Below, piece by piece: positions 2,067 through 15,955 of a stretch of 64,000 nucleotides of DNA. Source of the stretch: Candidatus Azambacteria bacterium (lineage in GTDB: Bacteria > Patescibacteriota > Minisyncoccia > UBA10092); the NCBI GenBank assembly GCA_016213445.1, contig JACRAJ010000002.1, positions 36,780 through 100,779 on the forward strand. Direction: 5' to 3'. How positions within the stretch are numbered: the first letter of the stretch is position 1; each line of letters starts with the position of its first letter. Below the pieces are notes generated by a model. It did not search any database and had not been told where the DNA came from. It saw only the letters and a program-made list of their open reading frames with translations. The position numbers were made by a program, and so were the translations under genes.

Positions 2067-2969
2067 TCAACTTGATTTCTTGCTTAACATTTTAAACCAA
2101 CTCGCAAGAAGCGGCGAAGCGATGAATATCGACGAGTAAGTTCCGGAAAAAATACCGACCATTAAAGCTAAAATAAAGTATTTAAGGCTTTCCCCGCCAA
2201 ATATATACAAGGCCGATAATGTCAAAAGAACAGTCAGCGAAGTATTGATTGAACGCACCAAAGTTTCATTGACGCTTCGATTGACCAGAGAATCGAAATC
2301 CAAAGAAGCGTAGCGTTTCAAATTTTCGCGAATCCTGTCAAAAACGACAATGGTATCGTGCACCGAAAATCCCAAGATTACAAGCAATGCCACGATAAAA
2401 TCGCCGCCGATTTCAATGCCGTAAAAATGGCCGAGATAGGAAAACAATCCCAATGGAATTATCAAATCATGAAATAATGCTGCGAGCGTCGCCGCGCCGT
2501 ATCGCCATGAACTTAAAGGCCGGGAAACTTTTCTGAAAGCCCAAGCGATATAAAGCGAGATGCCCAAGAGAACAATAATAATAGCCTTAATCGCTTTTTG
2601 TTTCAGTTCATTGCCGATAGTGGGCCCGATTGAAGAAAATCTTTTTTCTTCAATGTTGCCGCCGCTTGAATTCAAACTGTTTATAATCGCCTGATGCGTC
2701 GCCTCGTCTGTTTCTCTAAAACGAAAATCTACGCTGTCATCGCCGACCGGCGAAACTTTCAAGTCGCTTAAATTCAAAGGCTTCAACAGGTCGGTAATTT
2801 TGTTTATTTCGGGCCGATTGCGATTCGGATAAACAATTTCCAATATCGAACCGCCTTTAAAATCAATGCCGAATTGCAAGCCCCATAAAGACAAAGCGGC
2901 GATGCTTGCGACAATAAAAATGCCGGAAATCGCGTAATAAATTTTACTTTTTCCAATGATATTCAACAT
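2067..2969 (-). CDS. secF: protein-export membrane protein SecF
   Basis: N-terminal IIGKSKIYYAISGIFIVASI...FGIDFKGGS is typical SecF. It lies downstream of secD. Confidence 0.9.
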   Translation of the reverse strand: MLNIIGKSKIYYAISGIFIVASIAALSLWGLQFGIDFKGGSILEIVYPNRNRPEINKITDLLKPLNLSDLKVSPVGDDSVDFRFRETDEATHQAIINSLNSSGGNIEEKRFSSIGPTIGNELKQKAIKAIIIVLLGISLYIAWAFRKVSRPLSSWRYGAATLAALFHDLIIPLGLFSYLGHFYGIEIGGDFIVALLVILGFSVHDTIVVFDRIRENLKRYASLDFDSLVNRSVNETLVRSINTSLTVLLTLSALYIFGGESLKYFILALMVGIFSGTYSSIFIASPLLASWFKMLSKKSS

Positions 2970-2994
2970 CAGTTTAAAAATTAAAGATTAGAAA

Positions 2995-4410
2995 TTAAAC
3001 ATTGCGCGACTTTACTCCCATCAGCCAAGAAAATTTTTCGAGAGCGCCGATTGGAAAAACTTTTAAAAACGAACGGGTAACGAAAATTGCCGAAAACATA
3101 CTCACAATAACGCCGATCCCGAGGGTAAGGGCAAAACCCCTTACAATGCTTGTGGTAAAAAAATACAAAACCGTGGTAGTTATAAGAGTGGAAACGTTTG
3201 AATCGCGAATCGATGTCCAGGCGCGGGCAAAACCGTCATCAATCGCCAAAGCGAGATTTTTCCCCGCTCTGTATTCTTCTTTCATTCGTTCAAAGATAAG
3301 AATATTGGCGTCAACGGCCATGCCGATTGAAAGAATAAAACCGGCGACGCCCGCCAAAGTCAACGTTACGGGTATCAGCTTGAAAATCGCCAAAACCAAA
3401 ACGGCATAAATCAACAAAGCCGCCACGGCCACGATGCCGGGAAAACGATAAAATAAAATCATAAACAGCGCCACCACCAAAAATCCAATAAGGCCGGCTT
3501 TAACGCTTTTATCGAGGGAATCCTGGCCCAAACTGGCGCCAACCGAATCCTGGGAAATTAATCTAATAGGCACAGGCAAAGCGCCGGCATTAAGGCGTTC
3601 GGCCAATTGTTTCGCTTCATTGATGTTGAATTTTCCGGAAATAACGGCCGAACCGCCGCTGATGGGTTCGCGAACGGTAGGCGCCGAAATCGGAAGGCCG
3701 TCCAAGTAAATTCCCAGTTTTTTGCCTACGTTGCGCTTCGTCAAATCTTCAAATATTTTAGCGCCCTCGCTGTCAAATTGAACGCTGACCTGCGGCTGAT
3801 AAGCGCTTTGGTCAAATTCCACTTTCGCGCCTTTTATGTATCTGCCGTTTAAATTAGTGGATTTAAAATACGGATCTTGCGCCAAATAATCTTTATTGCC
3901 GGCTTTTTGTTCATTTAAAATTTTTTGCGTCTCGGCATTATCGCGCTGTTCTTTAAATTCCAAAAATGGCGTTTCGCCGATTAAAGCGATTGCTTGGGGA
4001 ATATTTTTAATTCCGGCCAGTTCCACCATAAGGCGCCAATCCGAACCGGAATGATCAACTCCGACCACGGGTTCGCTAACGCCGAAAAGATTGACCCGGC
4101 GTTCAATCACATCGCGCAAACCCGACATGGCCGAAGCGGCGTCTCCGCCGCTTACTCCCGAAACGTCAGCCGAATAAATCAATCTGGTGCCGCCGGCTAA
4201 ATCAAGTCCGAGTTTAAAAGGCGTTTTAACAAAATTCGGCAGAGCTACCGGCGAAACAACGTTTATTTTGCCGACAGCTTTATCCCAAATTGACGGAAAA
4301 ATAAAAAACGCCGCGATAACGGCGATTACAAAAATCGCCAACACCGTAAAACGCGTCTTTTTTGCGGCATCCAATTTGAATAATTTGTCGGGTGAGTAAT
4401 TTTCAGCCAT
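2995..4410 (-). CDS. secD: protein-export membrane protein SecD
   Basis: GLDLAGGTRLIY motif and multi-TM C-terminal SSD domain. Forms a secD-secF pair. Confidence 0.9.
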   Translation of the reverse strand: MAENYSPDKLFKLDAAKKTRFTVLAIFVIAVIAAFFIFPSIWDKAVGKINVVSPVALPNFVKTPFKLGLDLAGGTRLIYSADVSGVSGGDAASAMSGLRDVIERRVNLFGVSEPVVGVDHSGSDWRLMVELAGIKNIPQAIALIGETPFLEFKEQRDNAETQKILNEQKAGNKDYLAQDPYFKSTNLNGRYIKGAKVEFDQSAYQPQVSVQFDSEGAKIFEDLTKRNVGKKLGIYLDGLPISAPTVREPISGGSAVISGKFNINEAKQLAERLNAGALPVPIRLISQDSVGASLGQDSLDKSVKAGLIGFLVVALFMILFYRFPGIVAVAALLIYAVLVLAIFKLIPVTLTLAGVAGFILSIGMAVDANILIFERMKEEYRAGKNLALAIDDGFARAWTSIRDSNVSTLITTTVLYFFTTSIVRGFALTLGIGVIVSMFSAIFVTRSFLKVFPIGALEKFSWLMGVKSRNV

Positions 4411-4452: not shown

Positions 4453-4995
4453 TTATTTCTCTCCCCCTGTCAAATTTTTAACCAATAAAAACCGCAAGGG
4501 TTTTTTAGACCATATCGGCTCCGCATAAGCCACGCCGATTCTCGGCAATTTTTTAACGCTGAATTTCGAACGTTTAAAACCGGGGTTTTCTTCTATCCAT
4601 AGCCCCATTTTCATCGATGCTTTATTGTTGTTGAACTTTTTATCGATTTTTAAAAATTTAGTCAGCCGCGCCGGCCCGTTAATTCCTTTAACGGCTCGGA
4701 TTAAAATTGCGGCCGGATAATTTTTGGGGCCGGTAACGATATTCAGCATCCAGTGCATTCCGTACGTGAAATAAACATACCAAACGCCGGCTTCGCCGAA
4801 CATTGGCGCGTTTCTTTTCGTTATCCCCCGCGAAGCGTGCGACGCTTTGTCTTTAAAGCCGTCATAAACCTCGACTTCGGTAATCATAAGGCGAATTATT
4901 TTCCCGCCGATGCGTCTTACCAAATATTTTCCCAACAGATTTTTTGCCGCAGTCGCCGCCGGTTTTTCAAAAAATTTCTTTTTTAAAATGCCCAT
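4453..4995 (-). CDS. mpg: DNA-3-methyladenine (methylpurine) glycosylase, Mpg/AAG family
   Basis: TEVEVYDG...ASHASRGITKRNAPMFGEAGVWYVYFTYGMHWMLNIV matches the MPG family core. Confidence 0.8.
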   Translation of the reverse strand: MGILKKKFFEKPAATAAKNLLGKYLVRRIGGKIIRLMITEVEVYDGFKDKASHASRGITKRNAPMFGEAGVWYVYFTYGMHWMLNIVTGPKNYPAAILIRAVKGINGPARLTKFLKIDKKFNNNKASMKMGLWIEENPGFKRSKFSVKKLPRIGVAYAEPIWSKKPLRFLLVKNLTGGEK

Positions 4996-5325
4996 TCAAA
5001 TTATTGATCTAATTTCTTCCAAAATTTCTTTCGGAATCGGATTACGCGCCGGGCTTTTTCCCGGATACTTCCAAGCCGTGATTATTTTTATTTGTTTTCT
5101 GCTTTTTATTGATTTATATATAGTCCAAATTTCGGAATAAGTTTTATTGCCCGCAGGTTGCATGGATGCGATCATGTTTGGCACTATCGCCTCTTCGGTT
5201 CGCGCCGGATGCCTGATTATTCTTTTGATTCTCTGCGCCGACAATCCGTAATGCCGCATTTTATACTGCGAATGTTTCGTCCAGATGTATTTTTCTGATT
5301 TGGCGGATTGATTTAAGAGCTTCAT
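4996..5325 (-). CDS. small hypothetical protein, DUF4258-like
   Basis: IWTKHSQYKMRHYGLSAQRIKRII resembles the W-T-x-H-A-x2-R-M-x-E-R-G-I signature recalled for DUF4258. It is translationally coupled to the flanking genes (ATGA overlap at 5325; adjacent to mpg at 4995/4996). Confidence 0.5.
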   Translation of the reverse strand: MKLLNQSAKSEKYIWTKHSQYKMRHYGLSAQRIKRIIRHPARTEEAIVPNMIASMQPAGNKTYSEIWTIYKSIKSRKQIKIITAWKYPGKSPARNPIPKEILEEIRSII

Positions 5326-6101
5326 TATCTTTCAATTCCGCCGGCCGCTTCGCGGTAGCGGCAAAAATCGCAATCGGCGGACATTTTCGGAATTTCATTT
5401 CCCATCAAGCATTTATGCGCGTCAAAAACGGTTTTTTCAACCCAGCTATCGTCGCCTTTGTATGGCAGCAGTTTGATGTCAAATTCCAATTTTCCGTCAA
5501 AAGCTTCTTTGTCGGCATTGCCGTTGCAGTAAACGAAATAGCCCGTGTCGGAAACTTTAAAATCGTTCTTTCTGAAAAGCCACTGGTAAATTTCCATTTG
5601 CCGCTTATAGCCGCCCTGCCACTCCGCATCCAAATTGATTTCGGAGCTTTTCGACGTTGCCTTGTAGTCGACGATAATAAGATTGCCCTGCGGATCAACC
5701 CAAATGTCGTCTATCGCGCCGGTAATTATCAAATTCGTCGGCTCATGGAAATACTGGATGCCTTCGCTCAAAGCATCGCGCCATTTTTCCATATTTTCAT
5801 GCTTAAACGGAATGGCGTCTATTTTGTAAGCTTTCATAAGCGGATGCGGATTTCCCGCCGCCCGGTGAATGTCGAATTCTTTTTTCAAAAGAGTGTCAAC
5901 GGCTTTGTTTAAGTTGAACGGAAAGCCCGGCGGCTGGCCGATGCCGAGACGCCGGTCGAGATAAAAACATTTCGGGCACGACAAAAAATTGTCGATTTTG
6001 GAACGGCTTAATTTAAACGGCGTTTTCGACACCGGATCAAAAATATTCCTGCTTCTTTTCGGATTGTAAAATTTCGACATGGTTTGTATTCTAACACGCA
6101 A
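5325..6101 (-). CDS. PD-(D/E)XK nuclease, Cas4/RecB-like with Fe-S cysteines
   Basis: GAIDDIWVDPQGNLIIVDYKATSK gives the D..D/ExK catalytic motif. It has an N-terminal CPKC and a C-terminal C-D-F-C, as in Cas4/AddB iron-sulfur nucleases. Confidence 0.75.
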   Translation of the reverse strand: MRVRIQTMSKFYNPKRSRNIFDPVSKTPFKLSRSKIDNFLSCPKCFYLDRRLGIGQPPGFPFNLNKAVDTLLKKEFDIHRAAGNPHPLMKAYKIDAIPFKHENMEKWRDALSEGIQYFHEPTNLIITGAIDDIWVDPQGNLIIVDYKATSKSSEINLDAEWQGGYKRQMEIYQWLFRKNDFKVSDTGYFVYCNGNADKEAFDGKLEFDIKLLPYKGDDSWVEKTVFDAHKCLMGNEIPKMSADCDFCRYREAAGGIER

Positions 6102-6118
6102 TCATTCAAACGCGCGAA

Positions 6119-6475
6119 TTATCGTTTAACGCGCGCGGCGAGGGCGAAATGGAAAAAATATCCGTCTAAATCTTTCAGCGACGTTTTATATTCTTTCCCG
6201 CCCGAAATGGCGCCGCATAATAATTCCCGAACTCTGGCAATTTCTTTCAACCGATTTTTCCAGCGCGAATCGTTGATTGTCAAATCCAAAAGCTCCAACG
6301 CTCTATCAATAGCATTGTTATACGATTCTTGGTTTTTATCGCGCCAATTAAGAGCGCGGCTTACTTCACTACCGATATTTCCCATTTGTTCCATTAAAGA
6401 AAGTTGTTGCCATTTTCCCGCCGCCAATTCTTTGTGTATATAATTTTTTGATTTTTCGACAATTTTTATTTCCAT
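6119..6475 (-). CDS. hypothetical all-alpha protein, possibly a degenerate MazG/HisE-like NTP pyrophosphatase
   Basis: The helical pattern LMEQMGNIGSEV...NAIDRALELLDLT resembles small MazG-like proteins, but the canonical EExxE glutamates are partly replaced. It is the first gene of the nuclease operon. Confidence 0.45.
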   Translation of the reverse strand: MEIKIVEKSKNYIHKELAAGKWQQLSLMEQMGNIGSEVSRALNWRDKNQESYNNAIDRALELLDLTINDSRWKNRLKEIARVRELLCGAISGGKEYKTSLKDLDGYFFHFALAARVKR

Positions 6476-6577
6476 AATATATTATTATAACATTTTTACT
6501 TCCCACAGCACTTCTTATTAATTCCTAGCGAGCCCACAGGCGAGAGTTTACTTTCATCTGGGACGAGCGACGGAATT

Positions 6578-9097
6578 TCAAGCGCCACAGCAGCGCTTAT
6601 ATTTTTTGCCGGAGCCGCAGGGGCAGGGATCATTTCTACCGGCAACATGTTGATTTGAAACATGAGACATTGAATCCGTCACTGTCGCTTGTCGCTTGTC
6701 GCTAATTGCTGATTGCGCCGGCGGCTGGATTTTCAAAATCAGCGACGCAATTTGCGCGTCAAAATTGAAAAGCAAATCCTTAAACAATCTTTTGCTTTCA
6801 TTTTTATACTCCACCAGCGGATCTCTTTGGCCGTACGCCCGAAGCCGCACGCTGTCGCGCAGGTATTCCATATCCTCCAAATGGTTCATCCATAAATTAT
6901 CAAGAATATTGAGCATCAGCATTTTTTCAACCTGCCGCATCAACTCCGGCCCGATTTCTTTTTCTTTTTTATCGTACAAATCTTCCGCGTTTTCCATGTT
7001 TTGATTTTTCAGCAATTCCAAAACTTCGTCGCGGGAAACGCCCGACAAAATTTCCCGTCTTTTTTTATAAATCAAAGAGCGGTGCTGGTTCATCACGTCG
7101 TCGTATTCCAAAATATGTTTTCTGGCGTCGAAATTAAAGCCTTCGATTTTGGTTTGCGCCGATTCAATGGCTTTGGATACCAATCCGGCTTCTATCGGCT
7201 GGTCTTCGGGAATGTTGAGCGTCGTCATTAAATTTTTAATGCGTTCGCCGCCGAATATTTTGAGCAAGCTGTCTTCTAAAGAGACAAAAAATTGCGACGA
7301 ACCTGGGTCGCCTTGCCGGCCGGCGCGGCCTCTAAGCTGGTCGTCGATTCTTCTGGCTTCGTGGCGTTCGGTGCCGATTACGCACAAACCGCCCAAATCC
7401 GCGACTTGTTTGGCCTCTTCGGGATTTTTCGGATTGCCTCCCAAAATAATATCAACGCCGCGGCCCGCCATATTGGTCGCCACCGTCACCGCCCCCAGCC
7501 TGCCGGCTTGCGCGTGAATCGCCGCTTCCCTTTCATGCTGTTTGGCGTTTAAAACTTCATGTTTAATTCCTTCGCGCGAAAGCATCCGCGACAGCATTTC
7601 GTTGTTTTCAATTGAAATTGTGCCGATCAAAACCGGCTGGCCTTTTGCGTTTCGTTCCTTTACTTCATCAACAACCGCTTTAAATTTCGCTTCTTTCGTT
7701 TTGTAAATTTTGTCGGCCAGATTTTTCCTAATCATCGGTTTGTGCGTCGGCGCGATTACGACGCCGAGATTATAAACTTTATGGAATTCCTCGGCTGAAG
7801 TGGCGGCGGTGCCGGTCATTCCGGCTAATTTGTCGTAAAGCCGGAAAAAATTCTGAAAAGTTATTGTCGCTAATGTTTTTGATTCCTGCTGAACTTTCAC
7901 GCCTTCTTTGGCTTCAATCGCCTGATGCAATCCTTCGGAATACCGCCTGCCCTGCAAAAGCCGGCCGGTAAATTCGTCAACGATGATTATTTCGCCATTC
8001 CTGACGACATAGTCTTTATCCTTATGAAAAAGAGCCTCGGCCCTCAGCGCCTGTTCCAAATGATGGACATATCTGATGCTTCTTTCTTCATAAATATTTT
8101 CCATTCCCAAGATTTTTTCCACTTTGTTTAAACCGGCATCGGTGATAATTGCCGTCCTCATTTTTAAATCGACATTATAATCCTCGTTTTCTTTAAGCTG
8201 TGGAACGATTTTGGAGAAAGTTTCGTAAAGTTTCGGCGACTGCGCATCCGGCATAGAAATAATGAGCGGAGTTCGCGCTTCATCGATTAAAATGCTGTCG
8301 ACTTCATCGACAATGGCGAAAGCGCGGCCGGGACTGATTATTTGCGACAAGTCGCCCACTAAATTATCTCTCAAATAATCAAACCCGAATTCGGTGTTGG
8401 TGCCGTAAACTATGTCGCAATTGTAAGCGTCTTTTTTCGACGCCGGCCGCAAAAATTCATGTACCACCCGAAAACTTCCTTGATTGTCTCTTAATTCATC
8501 AAGTTTTTGTTCATTATTTTTGAGATTTGAGATTTGAGATTTGAGATTTGATCCGTGCAGCGGATCATAGATATAACTGCCATCAGAATTTATACATCCC
8601 ACCGTAAGTCCGAGAAAATCATAAATTTGTCCCATCCAAACCGCGTCGCGTCGCGCCAGATAATCGTTGACGGTAATGATATGGACGGAAGCTTTATTGT
8701 CGCCGGCCGAATGCGGGATAGCATTTAAATATGCGGGCAAAGTGGCTGTTAAAGTTTTGCCTTCGCCCGTCGCCATCTGGGCGATTTTTCCTTGGTGAAG
8801 CGCAATCGCGCCCAAAATTTGCTCGTCAAAGTGGCGCTGGTTCAGCGTTCTTTTTGCCGCTTCCCGCGCGATCGCAAACGTTTCGGGCAAAATCTCATCA
8901 AGCGAAGCGCCTTTTAGAAAACGATTTTTAAATTCTTCGGTTTTATTTTTTAAATCACTGTCCGAAAGCTTTAAAAATTGGCCATCAAAAGAATTAACCT
9001 CCTTTAACAGAGGCTTGATTTTATTTAAATATCGTTCATTCGCGTCGCCGAAAATTTTGGATAAAATACTCATCTTGGTTAGAAAATTATATAACAA
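6578..9097 (-). CDS. secA: preprotein translocase ATPase SecA
   Basis: Full-length, 839 aa. DEAD-like motor motifs are present. The C-terminus has the zinc-binding CPCGSGKKYKRCCG. Confidence 0.95.
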   Translation of the reverse strand: MLYNFLTKMSILSKIFGDANERYLNKIKPLLKEVNSFDGQFLKLSDSDLKNKTEEFKNRFLKGASLDEILPETFAIAREAAKRTLNQRHFDEQILGAIALHQGKIAQMATGEGKTLTATLPAYLNAIPHSAGDNKASVHIITVNDYLARRDAVWMGQIYDFLGLTVGCINSDGSYIYDPLHGSNLKSQISNLKNNEQKLDELRDNQGSFRVVHEFLRPASKKDAYNCDIVYGTNTEFGFDYLRDNLVGDLSQIISPGRAFAIVDEVDSILIDEARTPLIISMPDAQSPKLYETFSKIVPQLKENEDYNVDLKMRTAIITDAGLNKVEKILGMENIYEERSIRYVHHLEQALRAEALFHKDKDYVVRNGEIIIVDEFTGRLLQGRRYSEGLHQAIEAKEGVKVQQESKTLATITFQNFFRLYDKLAGMTGTAATSAEEFHKVYNLGVVIAPTHKPMIRKNLADKIYKTKEAKFKAVVDEVKERNAKGQPVLIGTISIENNEMLSRMLSREGIKHEVLNAKQHEREAAIHAQAGRLGAVTVATNMAGRGVDIILGGNPKNPEEAKQVADLGGLCVIGTERHEARRIDDQLRGRAGRQGDPGSSQFFVSLEDSLLKIFGGERIKNLMTTLNIPEDQPIEAGLVSKAIESAQTKIEGFNFDARKHILEYDDVMNQHRSLIYKKRREILSGVSRDEVLELLKNQNMENAEDLYDKKEKEIGPELMRQVEKMLMLNILDNLWMNHLEDMEYLRDSVRLRAYGQRDPLVEYKNESKRLFKDLLFNFDAQIASLILKIQPPAQSAISDKRQATVTDSMSHVSNQHVAGRNDPCPCGSGKKYKRCCGA
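6684..6704. repeat. heptanucleotide microsatellite (TGTCGCT)x3 in the secA C-terminal tail
   Basis: tgtcgcttgtcgcttgtcgct. The same unit, cyclically permuted, occurs in the dnaK C-terminus. Confidence 0.85.
8521..8551. repeat. heptanucleotide microsatellite (TGAGATT)x4 inside secA
   Basis: tgagatttgagatttgagatttgagatttga is read directly in the sequence. It stays in frame and encodes SNLKSQISNLK. Confidence 0.9.
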
Positions 9098-9154: not shown

Positions 9155-9556
9155 TTAATATTTCAATTTTACTCCGAGCTTATCGGCAATTTCTTGAAGC
9201 CATTTTTCATGGCGATCAACTTTGTGGGACAACATAACCATCTCCTGAAAATACGTATCAGCTTTTTGAGCGTAAGCGTCAACGGCCGTGAGAAGATTAT
9301 TAAAGTCAGACTTATCGGCTTTATTTTCTTTAAGATATTCAAGCTGTGAATCTATACTGGAAAATCTGTCATCTATTTTAGAAAACTGGTCATCTATTTT
9401 AGAAAACTGGTCATCTATTTTAGAAAACTGGTCATCTATTTTAGAAAACTGGTCATCTATTTTAGAAAACTGGTCATCTATTTTAGAAAACTGGTCATCT
9501 ACCTTGGAAAATTTATCATCCAAATATTGAATTAACTCTGAAAAATCATTATTCAT
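9155..9556 (-). CDS. hypothetical heptad-repeat protein (8x DDQFSKI)
   Basis: Encoded by perfect 21-bp tandem repeats. The C-terminal half is non-repetitive (EYLKENKADKSDFNNLLTAVDAYAQKAD...). Probably a coiled coil. Confidence 0.6.
   Translation of the reverse strand: MNNDFSELIQYLDDKFSKVDDQFSKIDDQFSKIDDQFSKIDDQFSKIDDQFSKIDDQFSKIDDRFSSIDSQLEYLKENKADKSDFNNLLTAVDAYAQKADTYFQEMVMLSHKVDRHEKWLQEIADKLGVKLKY
9360..9506. repeat. tandem 21-bp repeat array (~7-8 units of gaaaactggtcatctatttta)
   Basis: Units are perfectly identical at the DNA level. The first and last units are degenerate. The array lies inside CDS 9155..9556. Confidence 0.95.
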
Positions 9557-12319: not shown

Positions 12320-13561
12320 CTATTTTGATTGCAATGCGCTTAAAACCTTATTTATTATTTCCGCGGCTTTCTTTATTTCTTCCTTCGCGGTGTTTTTGCC
12401 GAGAGTAATCCGAATACTTTCTTTCGCTTCTTTTTCAGTCAAACCGATTGCGGTTAAAACATGGGAAGGCTCCATTGCCCTGCTGGAACAAGCGGAACCG
12501 GCCGAAACCGCCACACCGGCCTGATCCAAAGCCACTATAAGCGTTTCATTGCTTATTCCCGGAAACCTTATATTAATGTTATTCGGCAATCGGCCTTCAA
12601 AAGAGCCGTTTAATTCGGCCGACTTATTGTATTTAACGATATTTTCCCACAAGCCGTTTCGCAAATCAAGAACATGTTTGGAACGTTTCTCGCGATTTTT
12701 TCCGCCAGAGGCGGATCCGCCTCTGGCGGAAAAAATCAATTCAACCGCTTTCGCCAATCCGGCAACGGCGGCGACATTTTCCGTGCCCGAACGCAAACCG
12801 AATTCCTGCCCGCCGCCGGAAATAATCGGCGAAAGCGGCGTGTTTTTTCTTACATAAAGCCCGCCAATACCTTTGGGACCGTAAATTTTATGTCCGGAAA
12901 AAGTAAGCAAATCCGCTTTAAGCCAATCGGGGCGGCATTCCAAATAATTCATCGCCTGCACCGCGTCGGTGTGGAAATATATTTTTGAGAACCCATTTTC
13001 CCGCCTTGTTTTATTAATTTTTTCAATCAATTTCCCGATTTCTTTTATCGGCTGGATTGTTCCGATTTCATTATTGGCGTAAATAACGCTTACCAAAACC
13101 GTATTGTTTTTGATTGTTTTTTCAATGTCGGAAATTTTTACCAACCCGTTTTTATCAACCGGAAGATAATCAATTTCATGGTCGGCTTTTTTTAATTCTT
13201 TCAGCGGCTCGTGAACCGACTCGTGTTCTATCGGCGTGGAAATTATATGGTATTTAGTATTTGATATTTCTTGTTTTGTATTTTTTTTGAAAATTGAAAA
13301 TTGAAAATTCCTCGCAATTCCCAAAATTGCGAGGTTATTAGCTTCTGTCGCCGAGCCGGTGAAAATTATTTCGTTGAAATCGCAATTTAACAATTCGGCG
13401 ATTTTTCCCCGCGCGCCGTCTATTGCCGCTATCGCCTCCTGGCCGAATGAATGAATTGAAGAAGCGTTGCCGAATTTTTCGGAAAAATACGGCATCATCG
13501 CTTTTAAAACTTCGTCATCAACCGGTGTTGTCGCCGCGCAATCAAGATAGATTTTTTTCAT
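12320..13561 (-). CDS. cysteine desulfurase (class V aminotransferase, NifS/IscS family)
   Basis: PLP-lysine motif SGHKIYGPKGIGGLYVR and active-site SAGSACSS. It contains two in-frame repeat insertions (see repeat features). Confidence 0.85.
   Translation of the reverse strand: MKKIYLDCAATTPVDDEVLKAMMPYFSEKFGNASSIHSFGQEAIAAIDGARGKIAELLNCDFNEIIFTGSATEANNLAILGIARNFQFSIFKKNTKQEISNTKYHIISTPIEHESVHEPLKELKKADHEIDYLPVDKNGLVKISDIEKTIKNNTVLVSVIYANNEIGTIQPIKEIGKLIEKINKTRRENGFSKIYFHTDAVQAMNYLECRPDWLKADLLTFSGHKIYGPKGIGGLYVRKNTPLSPIISGGGQEFGLRSGTENVAAVAGLAKAVELIFSARGGSASGGKNREKRSKHVLDLRNGLWENIVKYNKSAELNGSFEGRLPNNINIRFPGISNETLIVALDQAGVAVSAGSACSSRAMEPSHVLTAIGLTEKEAKESIRITLGKNTAKEEIKKAAEIINKVLSALQSK
12696..12735. 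repeat. perfect 40-bp palindromic element, GGATCC-centred, inserted in-frame in the cysteine desulfurase
   Basis: ttttttccgccagaggcggatccgcctctggcggaaaaaa encodes SARGGSASGGKN. This stretch has no counterpart in E. coli IscS. A near-identical element sits in fba. Confidence 0.9.
13289..13334. repeat. (GAAAATT)x3 microsatellite plus 9-bp-stem hairpin inserted in-frame in the cysteine desulfurase
   Basis: gaaaattgaaaattgaaaatt is followed by cctcgcaattcccaaaattgcgagg. Together they encode an extra ~13 aa (FQFSIFKKNTKQE) relative to IscS. Confidence 0.85.
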
Positions 13562-14334
13562 AATTTTTCCAGCGCGGCGTTGAGTTCTTTAACTTGCTGT
13601 TCGGCGCGAGCGCGCCAGTCGCGGCCGGCGCAAAGCTCGTGATGCGAACAAAAATCGCAGACAAAATTCACCGTCCACTTTCCTTTATCTTCGTCAAAAA
13701 CAACCGGGTCGGGCAAAGGCGGCAATTCATCTTTACTCCAAGAACTGTTTAAAATTTCAAGCTGATCAACAATCGGTTTCACCGCTTCTTCGGAATAATT
13801 TACGGGAATAATCAGTCTGCCCAAATCGTCGCGGGAAACGTAAATTAGCCGGCCTTCGAGATTGGAAAAATCAACTTCCGGCAAATCCGCGTGGCCGTGA
13901 TTCCGGAGGCGCCACACGTAAAAAAGCATTTGGAGTTTATGCTGGGGCTGGGGCGCCTTGGTTTTTAATTTGTATTTGAAACTGAAAGAATTCGTCGATT
14001 TTATTTCGTAAAGCACCGGATGGCCGCCTTCGTCTATTATTAAATCAACCTTGCCCGACGCTTCATATTCCGGCGCCTCTATCCGCAATTGTTCCGCCAC
14101 CAATTTTCCCGAGTTTTTTACTTTATCGACAATCCAAGTCTCGACTATTTTGCCGACTTCCATAATTCCCATCCTGTCCGGTGGAATAACCGATGTCGGC
14201 GGCAAGCCTTTGCGGCGGTAAAAAGCGCCCCTCAAACAGGAATTCAAATCGGTCGCCCACCAGCTTTTTTTGGCATACGGCTCGCGGATGAAGCTTTCGT
14301 TTATTATTTTATCTAAAAAAGTGAGGGAGTCCAT
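13558..14334 (-). CDS. PD-(D/E)XK nuclease, Cas4-like (second copy)
   Basis: VDLIIDEGGHPVLYEIKST gives the D/ExK motif. The C-terminus has C-D-F-C-S-H-H-E-L-C plus an N-terminal Cys. There is a 4-nt overlap with both neighbouring genes. Confidence 0.75.
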   Translation of the reverse strand: MDSLTFLDKIINESFIREPYAKKSWWATDLNSCLRGAFYRRKGLPPTSVIPPDRMGIMEVGKIVETWIVDKVKNSGKLVAEQLRIEAPEYEASGKVDLIIDEGGHPVLYEIKSTNSFSFKYKLKTKAPQPQHKLQMLFYVWRLRNHGHADLPEVDFSNLEGRLIYVSRDDLGRLIIPVNYSEEAVKPIVDQLEILNSSWSKDELPPLPDPVVFDEDKGKWTVNFVCDFCSHHELCAGRDWRARAEQQVKELNAALEKL

Positions 14335-14903
14335 AATTTTTTTATTTCGAGTCCCGAATATTTCGCCAGGTTAATTTTTAAAGTTTTCACGTAAGGCAAA
14401 TTGGCATCGCGAGCCGTATATTTCAATTCGCCGTTTTTAAGGCAATGCTCGTACAAGTCTTTTGTAAGCCTTACGTCGTCGAGGCAATATTTTTTAAGCT
14501 CGTCCATTCTCCCCTGCCGCCAATAATCAACCGCCGCAAGACCGTTGCCGCTTTTTCTTTTCCCCAAAGTGTTGCCGACCAAATCATCCAAACTCACCCG
14601 ATGCCCCGCAACGCTTACGAATTCGGCCATAATATCAAGCGTTGGAATTTTGGCCAAATCGATGGACAAATATTTTTTCAAAACCGGCAAATCGAAATGA
14701 TCGATGTTAAAACCGATAATTAAATCGGTTCTTTTCAGCAAATTTTCAAACGCCGGCATTTCCTTTTCCGTAAAAGTTAAAAACTTATTATCGGAATAAG
14801 AATAAACGCCGGCGACGGAAAGCAAAAGTTTCGACAAATTTCCCTTGCCGCCGACGTCGGAAAATAAATTTTGAGTTTCAATGTCTAAAACAATGCGATT
14901 CAT
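14313..14903 (-). CDS. DnaQ-like DEDD 3'-5' exonuclease (RNase H-like fold, PolB-exo/YprB-type)
   Basis: Exo I VLDIETQN, Exo II GFNIDHFDLPVLKKY and Exo III YCLDDVRLTKDLY are all present. Confidence 0.7.
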   Translation of the reverse strand: MNRIVLDIETQNLFSDVGGKGNLSKLLLSVAGVYSYSDNKFLTFTEKEMPAFENLLKRTDLIIGFNIDHFDLPVLKKYLSIDLAKIPTLDIMAEFVSVAGHRVSLDDLVGNTLGKRKSGNGLAAVDYWRQGRMDELKKYCLDDVRLTKDLYEHCLKNGELKYTARDANLPYVKTLKINLAKYSGLEIKKLWTPSLF

Positions 14904-15955
14904 AACTCGTCTTCATCTCTGGGAGCTTCAATGGCCATCGGCTCGATTCCAACAGCTTCGCCCGTTATTTTTAAAACATCCTTATCGATTTTTTTCAATT
15001 CTTTGTAAGATTGGTTATACATATTAACGGAAGTGCCCAAGTGCGTGCCCAGTTTTTTCATATACGTTTCATAGCTTGAAAGATGCCGCCCCAATTCTTC
15101 AACTCTTTTTCTTATTTCCTTCGCCGATTCTTCGATTTGAAGCGCTTTCAACCCCTGAAGCACCGTTTGAAGATACGCGAAAAAAGAAGTCGGAGAAACA
15201 ATTATCACTTTTTTATCGACAATGGCATACTCAACAAGGTCCCTGGCGTTTATCGAACCGACTTTGTTTATCAACAAATCGTAATAAACGGCTTCGGCGG
15301 GAATAAACATAAAAGCAAAATCCATAGTGCCTTCGCCCGGCTTTACATATTTTGAGGTTTCGTCAATGCGGGTTTTCAAATCGTTCCTGAAAGCGTCTTC
15401 CAGTCTTTTTCTTTCAACTTCATCGCGAACTTCCAGCAAGCGATTGTAATTTTCCAAACTGAATTTGGAATCTATCGGAATGATTCTGTCTTTAATGAAT
15501 ATTGCCGCGTCAACGATTGTGCCGTCTTTGAAACCATATTGCAACTCATAAGTTCCCGGCGGCAAAACGTTTTTCAAAACCGTTTCCAGATAATATTCTC
15601 CCAAAATTCCGCGCTGTTTCGGATTTTTCAATATGTCCTGCAAATTTTTCAGCTGATCGGCGAAATTCACCACCTGTTTATTGGTATCGTCAAGCTTGGT
15701 GAGGCGCTCGGTGACATCGCGGATAATTTTCGCGCTTTGGGAAAACTGGTTTTGAATCTGGCTTTGCATCGTTTGCGCCGATTCTCCGAGTTTTTTATCA
15801 AGCGTCCGCGCGATTTCATTTATTTGATTTTGTATCAAAAGAAACGATTGCGACTGCGAGCCTTCACCGCCTTTCTTTTTAAAAATAAAAAAAGCGAATC
15901 CGCCCAGCGCGGCGCCCAAAACCAGAGAAAATAAAATTAAAATAAAATTATCCAT
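14900..15955 (-). CDS. rmuC: DNA recombination protein RmuC
   Basis: N-terminal TM helix, a long coiled coil, and the RmuC C-terminal domain (FAFMFIPAEAVYYDLL...IVSPTSFFAYLQTV). Confidence 0.85.
   Translation of the reverse strand: MDNFILILFSLVLGAALGGFAFFIFKKKGGEGSQSQSFLLIQNQINEIARTLDKKLGESAQTMQSQIQNQFSQSAKIIRDVTERLTKLDDTNKQVVNFADQLKNLQDILKNPKQRGILGEYYLETVLKNVLPPGTYELQYGFKDGTIVDAAIFIKDRIIPIDSKFSLENYNRLLEVRDEVERKRLEDAFRNDLKTRIDETSKYVKPGEGTMDFAFMFIPAEAVYYDLLINKVGSINARDLVEYAIVDKKVIIVSPTSFFAYLQTVLQGLKALQIEESAKEIRKRVEELGRHLSSYETYMKKLGTHLGTSVNMYNQSYKELKKIDKDVLKITGEAVGIEPMAIEAPRDEDEL

Follow-up and report, generated by a model that had tools for sequence, protein, structure and literature searches.

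Four closely packed genes lie between secA and secDF in the genome of a member of Candidatus Azambacteria (Patescibacteria, or candidate phyla radiation, CPR). They encode two small proteins of 118 and 109 amino acids (aa; p118 and p109), a Cas4-like nuclease and the DNA glycosylase Mpg. Do these genes form one system, or are they separate units that have come to lie side by side? An earlier reading of the letters, made without database searches (the original prediction), had proposed a nuclease-centered operon that could serve DNA repair or act as an anti-phage module on modified bases. We analyzed the genes in a stretch of 64,000 nucleotides (nt) of contig JACRAJ010000002.1 (positions 36,780 to 100,779 of the forward strand; here called the window), in which p118 and p109 are exact matches to NCBI HY838_01715 and HY838_01725. 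We conclude, with a probability of roughly 0.7, that the cluster consists of three evolutionarily independent units that happen to be neighbors; the interval between secA and secDF in which they lie is variable and lineage-specific. One unit is p118, now an orphan; another is the solo, core-like nuclease together with a DUF4258-like partner particular to the clade (p109); and the third is mpg, which is ordinary and optional.

The order of the genes is not conserved. The exact order p118-nuclease-p109-mpg was found in none of the 89 other loci containing p109. For a survey of neighbors, open reading frames (ORFs) were called in the 80 best species-level nuclease loci and searched with the window proteins. 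There was no mpg within 6 kb of the nuclease in any of these 80 loci, and members of the p109 and p118 families were near the nuclease in four and two of them, respectively. Among loci holding both secA and secD, the interval between these two genes had at least 12 architectures. Its commonest core was nuclease-p109, and the remaining genes were optional: DUF5674-p118, mpg, NUDIX, HicAB, DUF1653/EamA and small ORFs. The pairing of p118 with DUF5674 at other loci, described below, likewise speaks against the four genes as one unit. Because the gene order is not conserved, which the original prediction had itself named as evidence against its proposal, a single repair or defense operon is not supported.

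The features of the locus are as follows, in order of increasing coordinates:

2067..4410, minus strand: secD (2995-4410) and secF (2067-2969), ORFs; the downstream border of the interval.
4473-4444, minus strand: promoter-like TTGACA-18-TAATAT preceding secD, from reading of the sequence.
4453..4995, minus strand: mpg, 180 aa, predicted DNA-3-methyladenine (alkylpurine) glycosylase.
4996..5325, minus strand: p109, 109 aa, a basic protein, divergent and weakly DUF4258-like.
5325..6080, minus strand: type A nuclease, predicted RecB/Cas4-like PD-(D/E)XK, 251 aa from the ATG at 6080.
6119..6475, minus strand: p118, ORF of 118 aa, from a family without a Pfam model.
6443..6475, minus strand: remnant of DUF5674, about 10 codons (MEIKIVEKSK) fused in frame to p118, from DNA alignment; the junction is approximate.
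6476..6577, minus strand: spacer of 102 nt between secA and p118; a TATAAT-like box closely precedes the p118 ATG, from reading of the sequence.
6578..9097, minus strand: secA, ORF, with SecA Pfam domains in syntenic loci; the upstream border of the variable interval.

The ORFs bear out the earlier description of four tightly packed minus-strand genes between secA and secDF. As had been noted, p109 abuts mpg without a gap (0 nt), its stop codon TGA being followed directly by ATG. The junction between the nuclease and p109 had been given as an ATGA overlap; it reads ...AGA TAA TG AAG..., an overlap of 1 nt (TAATG). There are 38 nt between the p118 stop codon and the nuclease ATG at 6080, and 42 nt between mpg and secD. 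At its full extent, the nuclease ORF spans 5325-6101 and would give 258 aa from a TTG at 6101. The start is most likely the ATG at 6080, because all homologues of the nuclease and the 251-aa NCBI model begin at MSK(F/Y)YNP. No terminator-like hairpin was found in the minus-strand intergenic spacers, which makes co-transcription plausible, and the four genes on the minus strand are probably transcribed together.

The nuclease is, as far as profile and motifs can tell, a member of the RecB-like branch of the PD-(D/E)XK superfamily with RecB/Cas4-type catalytic motifs, and both lines of evidence fit the Cas4-like nuclease that had been proposed here. In the Pfam search it matched PF12705 (PDDEXK_1) with an E-value of 4.3e-13 and 50.2 bits (cut-off 22), and PF01930 was not reported. 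It scored below the curated cut-off of the Cas4 model TIGR00372 (28 bits versus 65), and its matches in PADLOC-DB v2 were to generic Cas4 models only (E-values of 4e-8 to 3e-4). The CPKC, CDFC and IVDYK motifs noted earlier are present and are invariant across 23 orthologues, the alignment of which has a mean column identity of 72%. The invariant positions in this alignment are C35-x2-C38, D124, D125, D138-Y-K140, Q161...Y165 (a Q-x3-Y motif that reads Q161-M-E-I-Y165 in the window), C224 and C237-x2-C240. Matches in PHROGs were obtained for the nuclease only, to phrog_31195 (a family of unknown function) and to generic exonuclease families. Sequence searches found no relatives in PDB of the nuclease, p109, p118 or DUF5674.

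The nuclease family is large and strongly conserved. There were more than 8000 homologues, and the best 120 were all at least 68% identical. The nuclease was present in at least 598 species-level Patescibacteria genomes, with lineage labels that include Paceibacteria, Levy-, Roizman-, Woyke-, Morani-, Falkow-, Kerfeld-, Nomura- and Wolfebacteria, among others. Identity was 63-89% over this phylum-level diversity, which argues for strong purifying selection on the nuclease and not for arms-race turnover. The neighbors, by comparison, varied. When three genes on each side were clustered, no neighbor family was common to more than five of the 80 species-level loci, the ORFs tightly linked downstream of the nuclease were heterogeneous, and a broadened hidden Markov model (HMM) of p109 added no further members. 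No hidden conserved partner of the nuclease was found in these loci. Solo Cas4-like genes have been reported in many CPR genomes, where they are mainly vertically inherited and their function is given as unknown, 'defence or repair' (Hudaiberdiev et al. 2017, PMC5704561). Because the family is large and conserved, its neighbors are variable, and these features agree with the published solo genes, the nuclease is, as judged from its distribution, a stand-alone, core-like gene that is inherited vertically across Patescibacteria.

The nuclease lies outside any CRISPR-cas adaptation module. Its neighbors are secA, secDF, mpg and small genes, and there is no neighbor family shared among the 80 orthologous loci. 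No CRISPR-like repeats were found in the window, and a search of the window with Rfam gave nothing but tRNAs, which are located elsewhere in it. On these grounds, an association with CRISPR was rejected.

There is a second Cas4-like nuclease in the window. The minus-strand region from 13558 to 15955, which is probably what the original prediction counted as the first nuclease operon, contains a gene for a 258-aa nuclease (13558-14334) that overlaps a gene for a 3'-5' exonuclease (14313-14903; RNase_H_2/DNA_pol_A_exo1), and it also contains RmuC (14900-15955). This nuclease matches PF12705 (E-value of 4e-7) and PF01930 (24.8 bits; cut-off 22.7). The nuclease at 5325-6080 had been called its paralogue. 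Comparison of the two gave no phmmer match at E≤1 and an hhalign probability of 1%. By these measures the two nucleases are related only at the level of the superfamily and its motifs; the claimed kinship stands at that level, and a closer one does not.

The second unit is p118. This protein had been described as MazG-like, a label that is not supported by the sequence and structure comparisons, none of which gave a MazG signal. There was no match to p118 in Pfam, NCBIfam or PADLOC, and single and profile searches against PDB sequences gave only chance matches. The AlphaFold2 model of p118 is a five-helix bundle with a predicted local distance difference test (pLDDT) score of 91. A Foldseek search with this model against PDB and BFVD returned nothing at E≤0.001 (the best match was FliS, with an E-value of 0.45), and the 50 best matches listed included no MazG. 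Alignment of the p118 family profile to a genuine MazG protein by hhalign gave a probability of 0.1%. No MazG-type profile was found for the window p118 (E≤1) or for 43 diverse members of the family (E≤0.01); the Pfam search of those 43 reported one DUF5674 fusion and nothing else. The family to which p118 belongs is large (1497 word-indexed matches; 1678 clusters at 50% identity) and is without a Pfam model.

The genomic contexts of p118 point to a different partner. Among 17 distinct cases at other loci, 13 had an intact DUF5674 gene directly upstream of p118, the two being -4 to 20 nt apart. The window p118, unlike these relatives, has no intact DUF5674 gene directly upstream. The contexts of p118 elsewhere were unrelated to the nuclease, being beside AbiEii/DUF6922, HicAB, or ligase and hisS genes. 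In one related locus (L006), the order is secA-DUF5674-p118, then approximately 3 kb of other genes, then nuclease-p109-mpg-secD, and DUF5674 is intact and starts with MTIKII. DNA alignment of the window with L006 and a further locus (L009) identified the first approximately 10 codons of the window p118 (MEIKIVEKSK) as the start of DUF5674 fused in frame. In L009, the fused ORF (835-1254) matches positions 2-33 of the DUF5674 model. There are at least five different DUF5674/p118 fusion junctions across the p118 family (the fusion proteins listed are P0002, P0063, P0076, P0102, P0114, P0438 and P0464), which indicates that DUF5674 has been deleted repeatedly in frame while expression of p118 was kept. 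The pattern looks like one in which a costly partner is lost and the other is kept. Among the intact pairs, HicB/HicA adjoins DUF5674/p118 in L175/L176 (3133-3592), and AbiEii/DUF6922 adjoins it in L001 (4728-5646).

The glycosylase appears ordinary. The 180-aa protein gave a full-length match to its family, with an E-value of 4.6e-48 and 163.4 bits (cut-off 27) for PF02245 in the Pfam search and 145.4 bits (cut-off 116.35) for TIGR00567. These scores agree with its original identification and mark it as a canonical Mpg, a 3-methyladenine DNA glycosylase of the ordinary housekeeping kind, with a presumed role in base excision of alkylated or deaminated purines. Its position is optional, mpg being downstream of p109 in 19 of the 58 related loci with enough downstream sequence. 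Overall, p109 was followed by secD in 29 loci and by mpg in 19, and in nine another gene came next.

The remaining gene, p109, is the only one with a consistent link to the nuclease, and this holds chiefly for the Azambacteria-like clade. That the protein is DUF4258-like holds for the family and less well for the window member. The window protein matched DUF4258 (PF14076) weakly, over positions 1-70 of the 71 in the model, with an E-value of 0.089 and 13.5 bits, below the curated cut-off of 25. DUF4258 was the top Pfam match in nine of 10 p109 relatives tested, a single one of which passed the cut-off (P0240, 26.9 bits). p109 is thus a divergent, weakly DUF4258-like protein. There were 202 matches to the family, at 61-86% identity, and a C-terminal motif, AWRYPGKSP...NPIP...EIL, was strongly conserved. 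The AlphaFold2 model of p109 was unreliable (pLDDT 50; secondary structure a-a-b-b-b-a), and annotation based on structure was abandoned for this protein. The DUF4258 family has been placed among RNase toxins of the RelE/ParE-BECR fold (PMC11980606; bioRxiv 10.64898/2026.08.28.747851). The surroundings of p109 do not have the two-gene layout of a toxin-antitoxin system, as there is a nuclease gene upstream and mpg or secD downstream. Neither a nuclease nor an antitoxin-like partner accompanies the homologues that are approximately 50% identical to p109, which are found after htpX or between ruvA and rpsT.

Two neighborhoods of p109 relatives recur. In L159, L161, L165 and L167, homologues of about 50% identity are divergent beside ruvA and upstream of rpsT, a second, recombination-related neighborhood. 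A gene that by sequence appearance is PEBP/YbhB-like recurs beside distant p109 members in other Patescibacteria lineages (L044, 7322-7771; L065, 7097-7621; L162, 3855-4436).

We found two types of nuclease upstream of p109. A metagenome scan gave 80 p109 loci, and in the 45 nuclease-p109 loci considered below the nuclease was of the window type (type A) in 12 and of another type (type B) in 33. Type B is 26% identical to type A over the full length and has the CX2C, D-x-K, Q-x3-Y and CxFC motifs and the same PHROG in common with it; of the cysteine pattern, it keeps CX2C...CX2C alone. Both types occupy the slot upstream of p109 in the secA-secD interval of Azambacteria-like genomes (L006-L008, L090-L174), and in one genome (L073) type A and B-like nuclease genes are in tandem. 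SecD was 84-86% identical to that of the window in type B genomes and 78-79% identical in genomes with an 85%-identical type A nuclease. Because the distribution of the two types does not track SecD identity, we infer that the nuclease was replaced in situ. Throughout, p109 stays approximately 80% identical whether the upstream nuclease is of type A or type B.

On the reading of three independent units, each has a character of its own. p118 is the orphaned downstream member of a DUF5674/p118 pair from which DUF5674 was lost by in-frame deletion, with its start codon kept. In repair or recombination, the nuclease would process DNA ends or flaps. p109 could be an accessory partner of the nuclease, either nucleic-acid-binding or RNase-like, or a gene that is merely co-expressed with it. 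The mpg product would carry out ordinary base excision of alkylated or deaminated purines, and about a third of related loci have this gene.

Several observations weigh against full independence of the units. In the Azambacteria-like clade, 62 loci had enough sequence upstream of p109, and in 45 of these a PD-(D/E)XK nuclease directly preceded it. Outside this clade, a type A nuclease and p109 have the same 1-nt overlap in a different genomic context (L065); the two genes are also near each other in L044 and L076. The trio nuclease-p109-mpg, with spacing of 0-3 nt, occurred in 16 loci, some of them duplicates. In addition, the interval gathers toxin-antitoxin genes such as HicAB, reminiscent of accessory or defense hot spots, and our sampling was of contigs, with many loci from one clade, so that the counts are not phylogenetically independent. 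The nuclease/p109 pair may be a true functional unit and not simply neighbors by descent, and the trio may represent a clade-specific repair operon. Taken further, the nuclease and p109 would be a two-protein machine, with an end-processing nuclease and a small nucleic-acid-binding or RNase-like subunit, which mpg joins in some strains as a clade-specific repair operon. The near-constancy of p109 behind two different nuclease types favors such a machine, as it suggests that some nuclease of the subfamily is required at that position. However, 76 of the 80 species-level nuclease loci are without p109, even by the broadened HMM, and the distant homologues at ruvA/rpsT or htpX have no nuclease nearby. 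Adjacency within one clade may be inherited synteny, and the p109 monomer model, with a pLDDT of 50, lends no support to an interaction between the two proteins. We therefore regard the two-protein machine as possible, with the odds against it.

The variability of the interval could also be read in terms of genetic conflict. The small genes would then be conflict elements, with p109 an active BECR-type RNase toxin and DUF5674/p118 a toxin-antitoxin-like pair that has lost its toxin-like gene here, and the cluster would be a place beside housekeeping genes where selfish modules gather (a hot spot) or decay (a graveyard). The published toxin classification of DUF4258, the close spacing of DUF5674 and p118, the AbiEii/DUF6922 or HicAB genes beside that pair, and the recurrent in-frame deletion of DUF5674 with p118 retained all point in this direction. 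Yet p109 has no consistent small antitoxin-like partner, and its distant homologues stand alone in housekeeping contexts; p109 and p118 are 60-85% identical over many genomes, a degree of conservation that is unusual in selfish modules; and DUF5674, the putative toxin, goes unmentioned in the literature searched. This interpretation is unlikely in our view. We are similarly doubtful of a broader version, in which conflict or accessory modules collect in the interval as in a hot spot and two unrecognized systems are among them: a solo Cas4-like nuclease, swappable between the two 26%-identical types, with a BECR/DUF4258-like partner that stays, and a widespread toxin-antitoxin-like DUF5674/p118 pair (about 1,700 clusters at 50% identity) from which DUF5674 is repeatedly lost by in-frame deletion, p118 being left as an orphan in the window. 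The original proposal of an anti-phage module, in which Mpg would excise modified phage bases and the Cas4-like nuclease would cut the abasic DNA, aided by a MazG-like hydrolase and a toxin-like protein, fared worst and seems to us very improbable. A glycosylase and a nuclease do occur here in one probably co-transcribed cluster, the content of the interval varies, with toxin-antitoxin genes present in relatives, and restriction of phages by glycosylases exists elsewhere. But Mpg scores as an ordinary housekeeping member and is optional even in close relatives, besides being absent from the vicinity of the nuclease in the species-level survey. The conservation of the nuclease over the phylum points to purifying selection and not to an arms race, and p118 has no MazG signal. 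PADLOC-DB v2 had no match for Mpg, p109 or p118, and its generic Cas4 models for the nuclease are all that it offers for a defense role. Among 2.9 million viral contigs, there were 14 loci with the nuclease, one with p118 and none with p109, so the genes are almost absent from them; a phage origin was rejected on the same counts.

As an operon for defense or repair, the proposal does not hold up, and the cluster is to be left out of any count of candidate anti-phage systems. The nuclease is among the most conserved PD-(D/E)XK nucleases of Patescibacteria, and this bears on how DNA ends are handled in reduced genomes; the DUF4258-like protein, translationally coupled to it in one clade, gives biochemical work a point of entry. 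The partner of p118 has been lost in frame time and again, a pattern typical of conflict modules, and we found no description of it in the literature searched. Only two points seem worth following: the pairing of the nuclease with the DUF4258-like protein, and DUF5674 as a partner that is repeatedly deleted.

Two other genes lie near the borders of the interval on the minus strand. Between a ribosome hibernation factor-like gene and secA, 9155-9556 encodes a 133-aa protein with seven tandem DDQFSKI heptads, for which the only Pfam matches were chance matches of coiled-coil type. Just downstream of secF, 962-1993 encodes a 343-aa protein with a sigma-70 region 4 and a HARE-HTH domain.

Each component of the cluster can be compared with a known system. 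Phage restriction based on glycosylases is known, for example from the Brig1-type DNA glycosylases, and the cluster likewise has a DNA glycosylase beside a nuclease. It differs in that its glycosylase is a canonical Mpg of the housekeeping kind, which lacks a conserved linkage to the nuclease, a defense-island context and any match in PADLOC. Compared with the Mpg/AAG family (PF02245, TIGR00567), the window protein has the full-length match and the scores above curated cut-offs, and nothing in it is distinctive; it is unusual only in its position directly after a DUF4258-like gene, and that position is itself variable. With MazG and the other all-alpha nucleoside triphosphate pyrophosphohydrolases (PF03819), p118 shares a small, all-helical bundle of about 110 aa and conserved acidic residues, including E61-x-x-D64, but it differs in having no profile, hhalign or Foldseek support. 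p109 resembles the DUF4258/Ntox49 BECR RNase toxins in its N-terminal W-T-x-H-S...R-x-I-K-R, which aligns from model position 1 in nearly all members, and its predicted order of helix-helix-strand-strand-strand may be compatible with the fold, at low confidence. It differs from these toxins in scoring below the Pfam cut-off, in having a nuclease gene upstream and no adjacent antitoxin-like gene, and in its conserved C-terminal motif and housekeeping-like conservation. Canonical Cas4 has a cluster of four cysteines, one N-terminal and three C-terminal; the window nuclease differs from it, with cysteines arranged as CX2C...CX2C plus C224. The closest counterparts are the solo Cas4-like genes of CPR (PMC5704561), from which the window nuclease differs in scoring on PF12705 and not on Cas4 models and in being coupled, in one clade, to a DUF4258-like gene. 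Like them, it is a RecB/Cas4-type PD-(D/E)XK nuclease outside CRISPR-cas loci in a host with a small genome, and its family is likewise mainly vertically inherited and under purifying selection.

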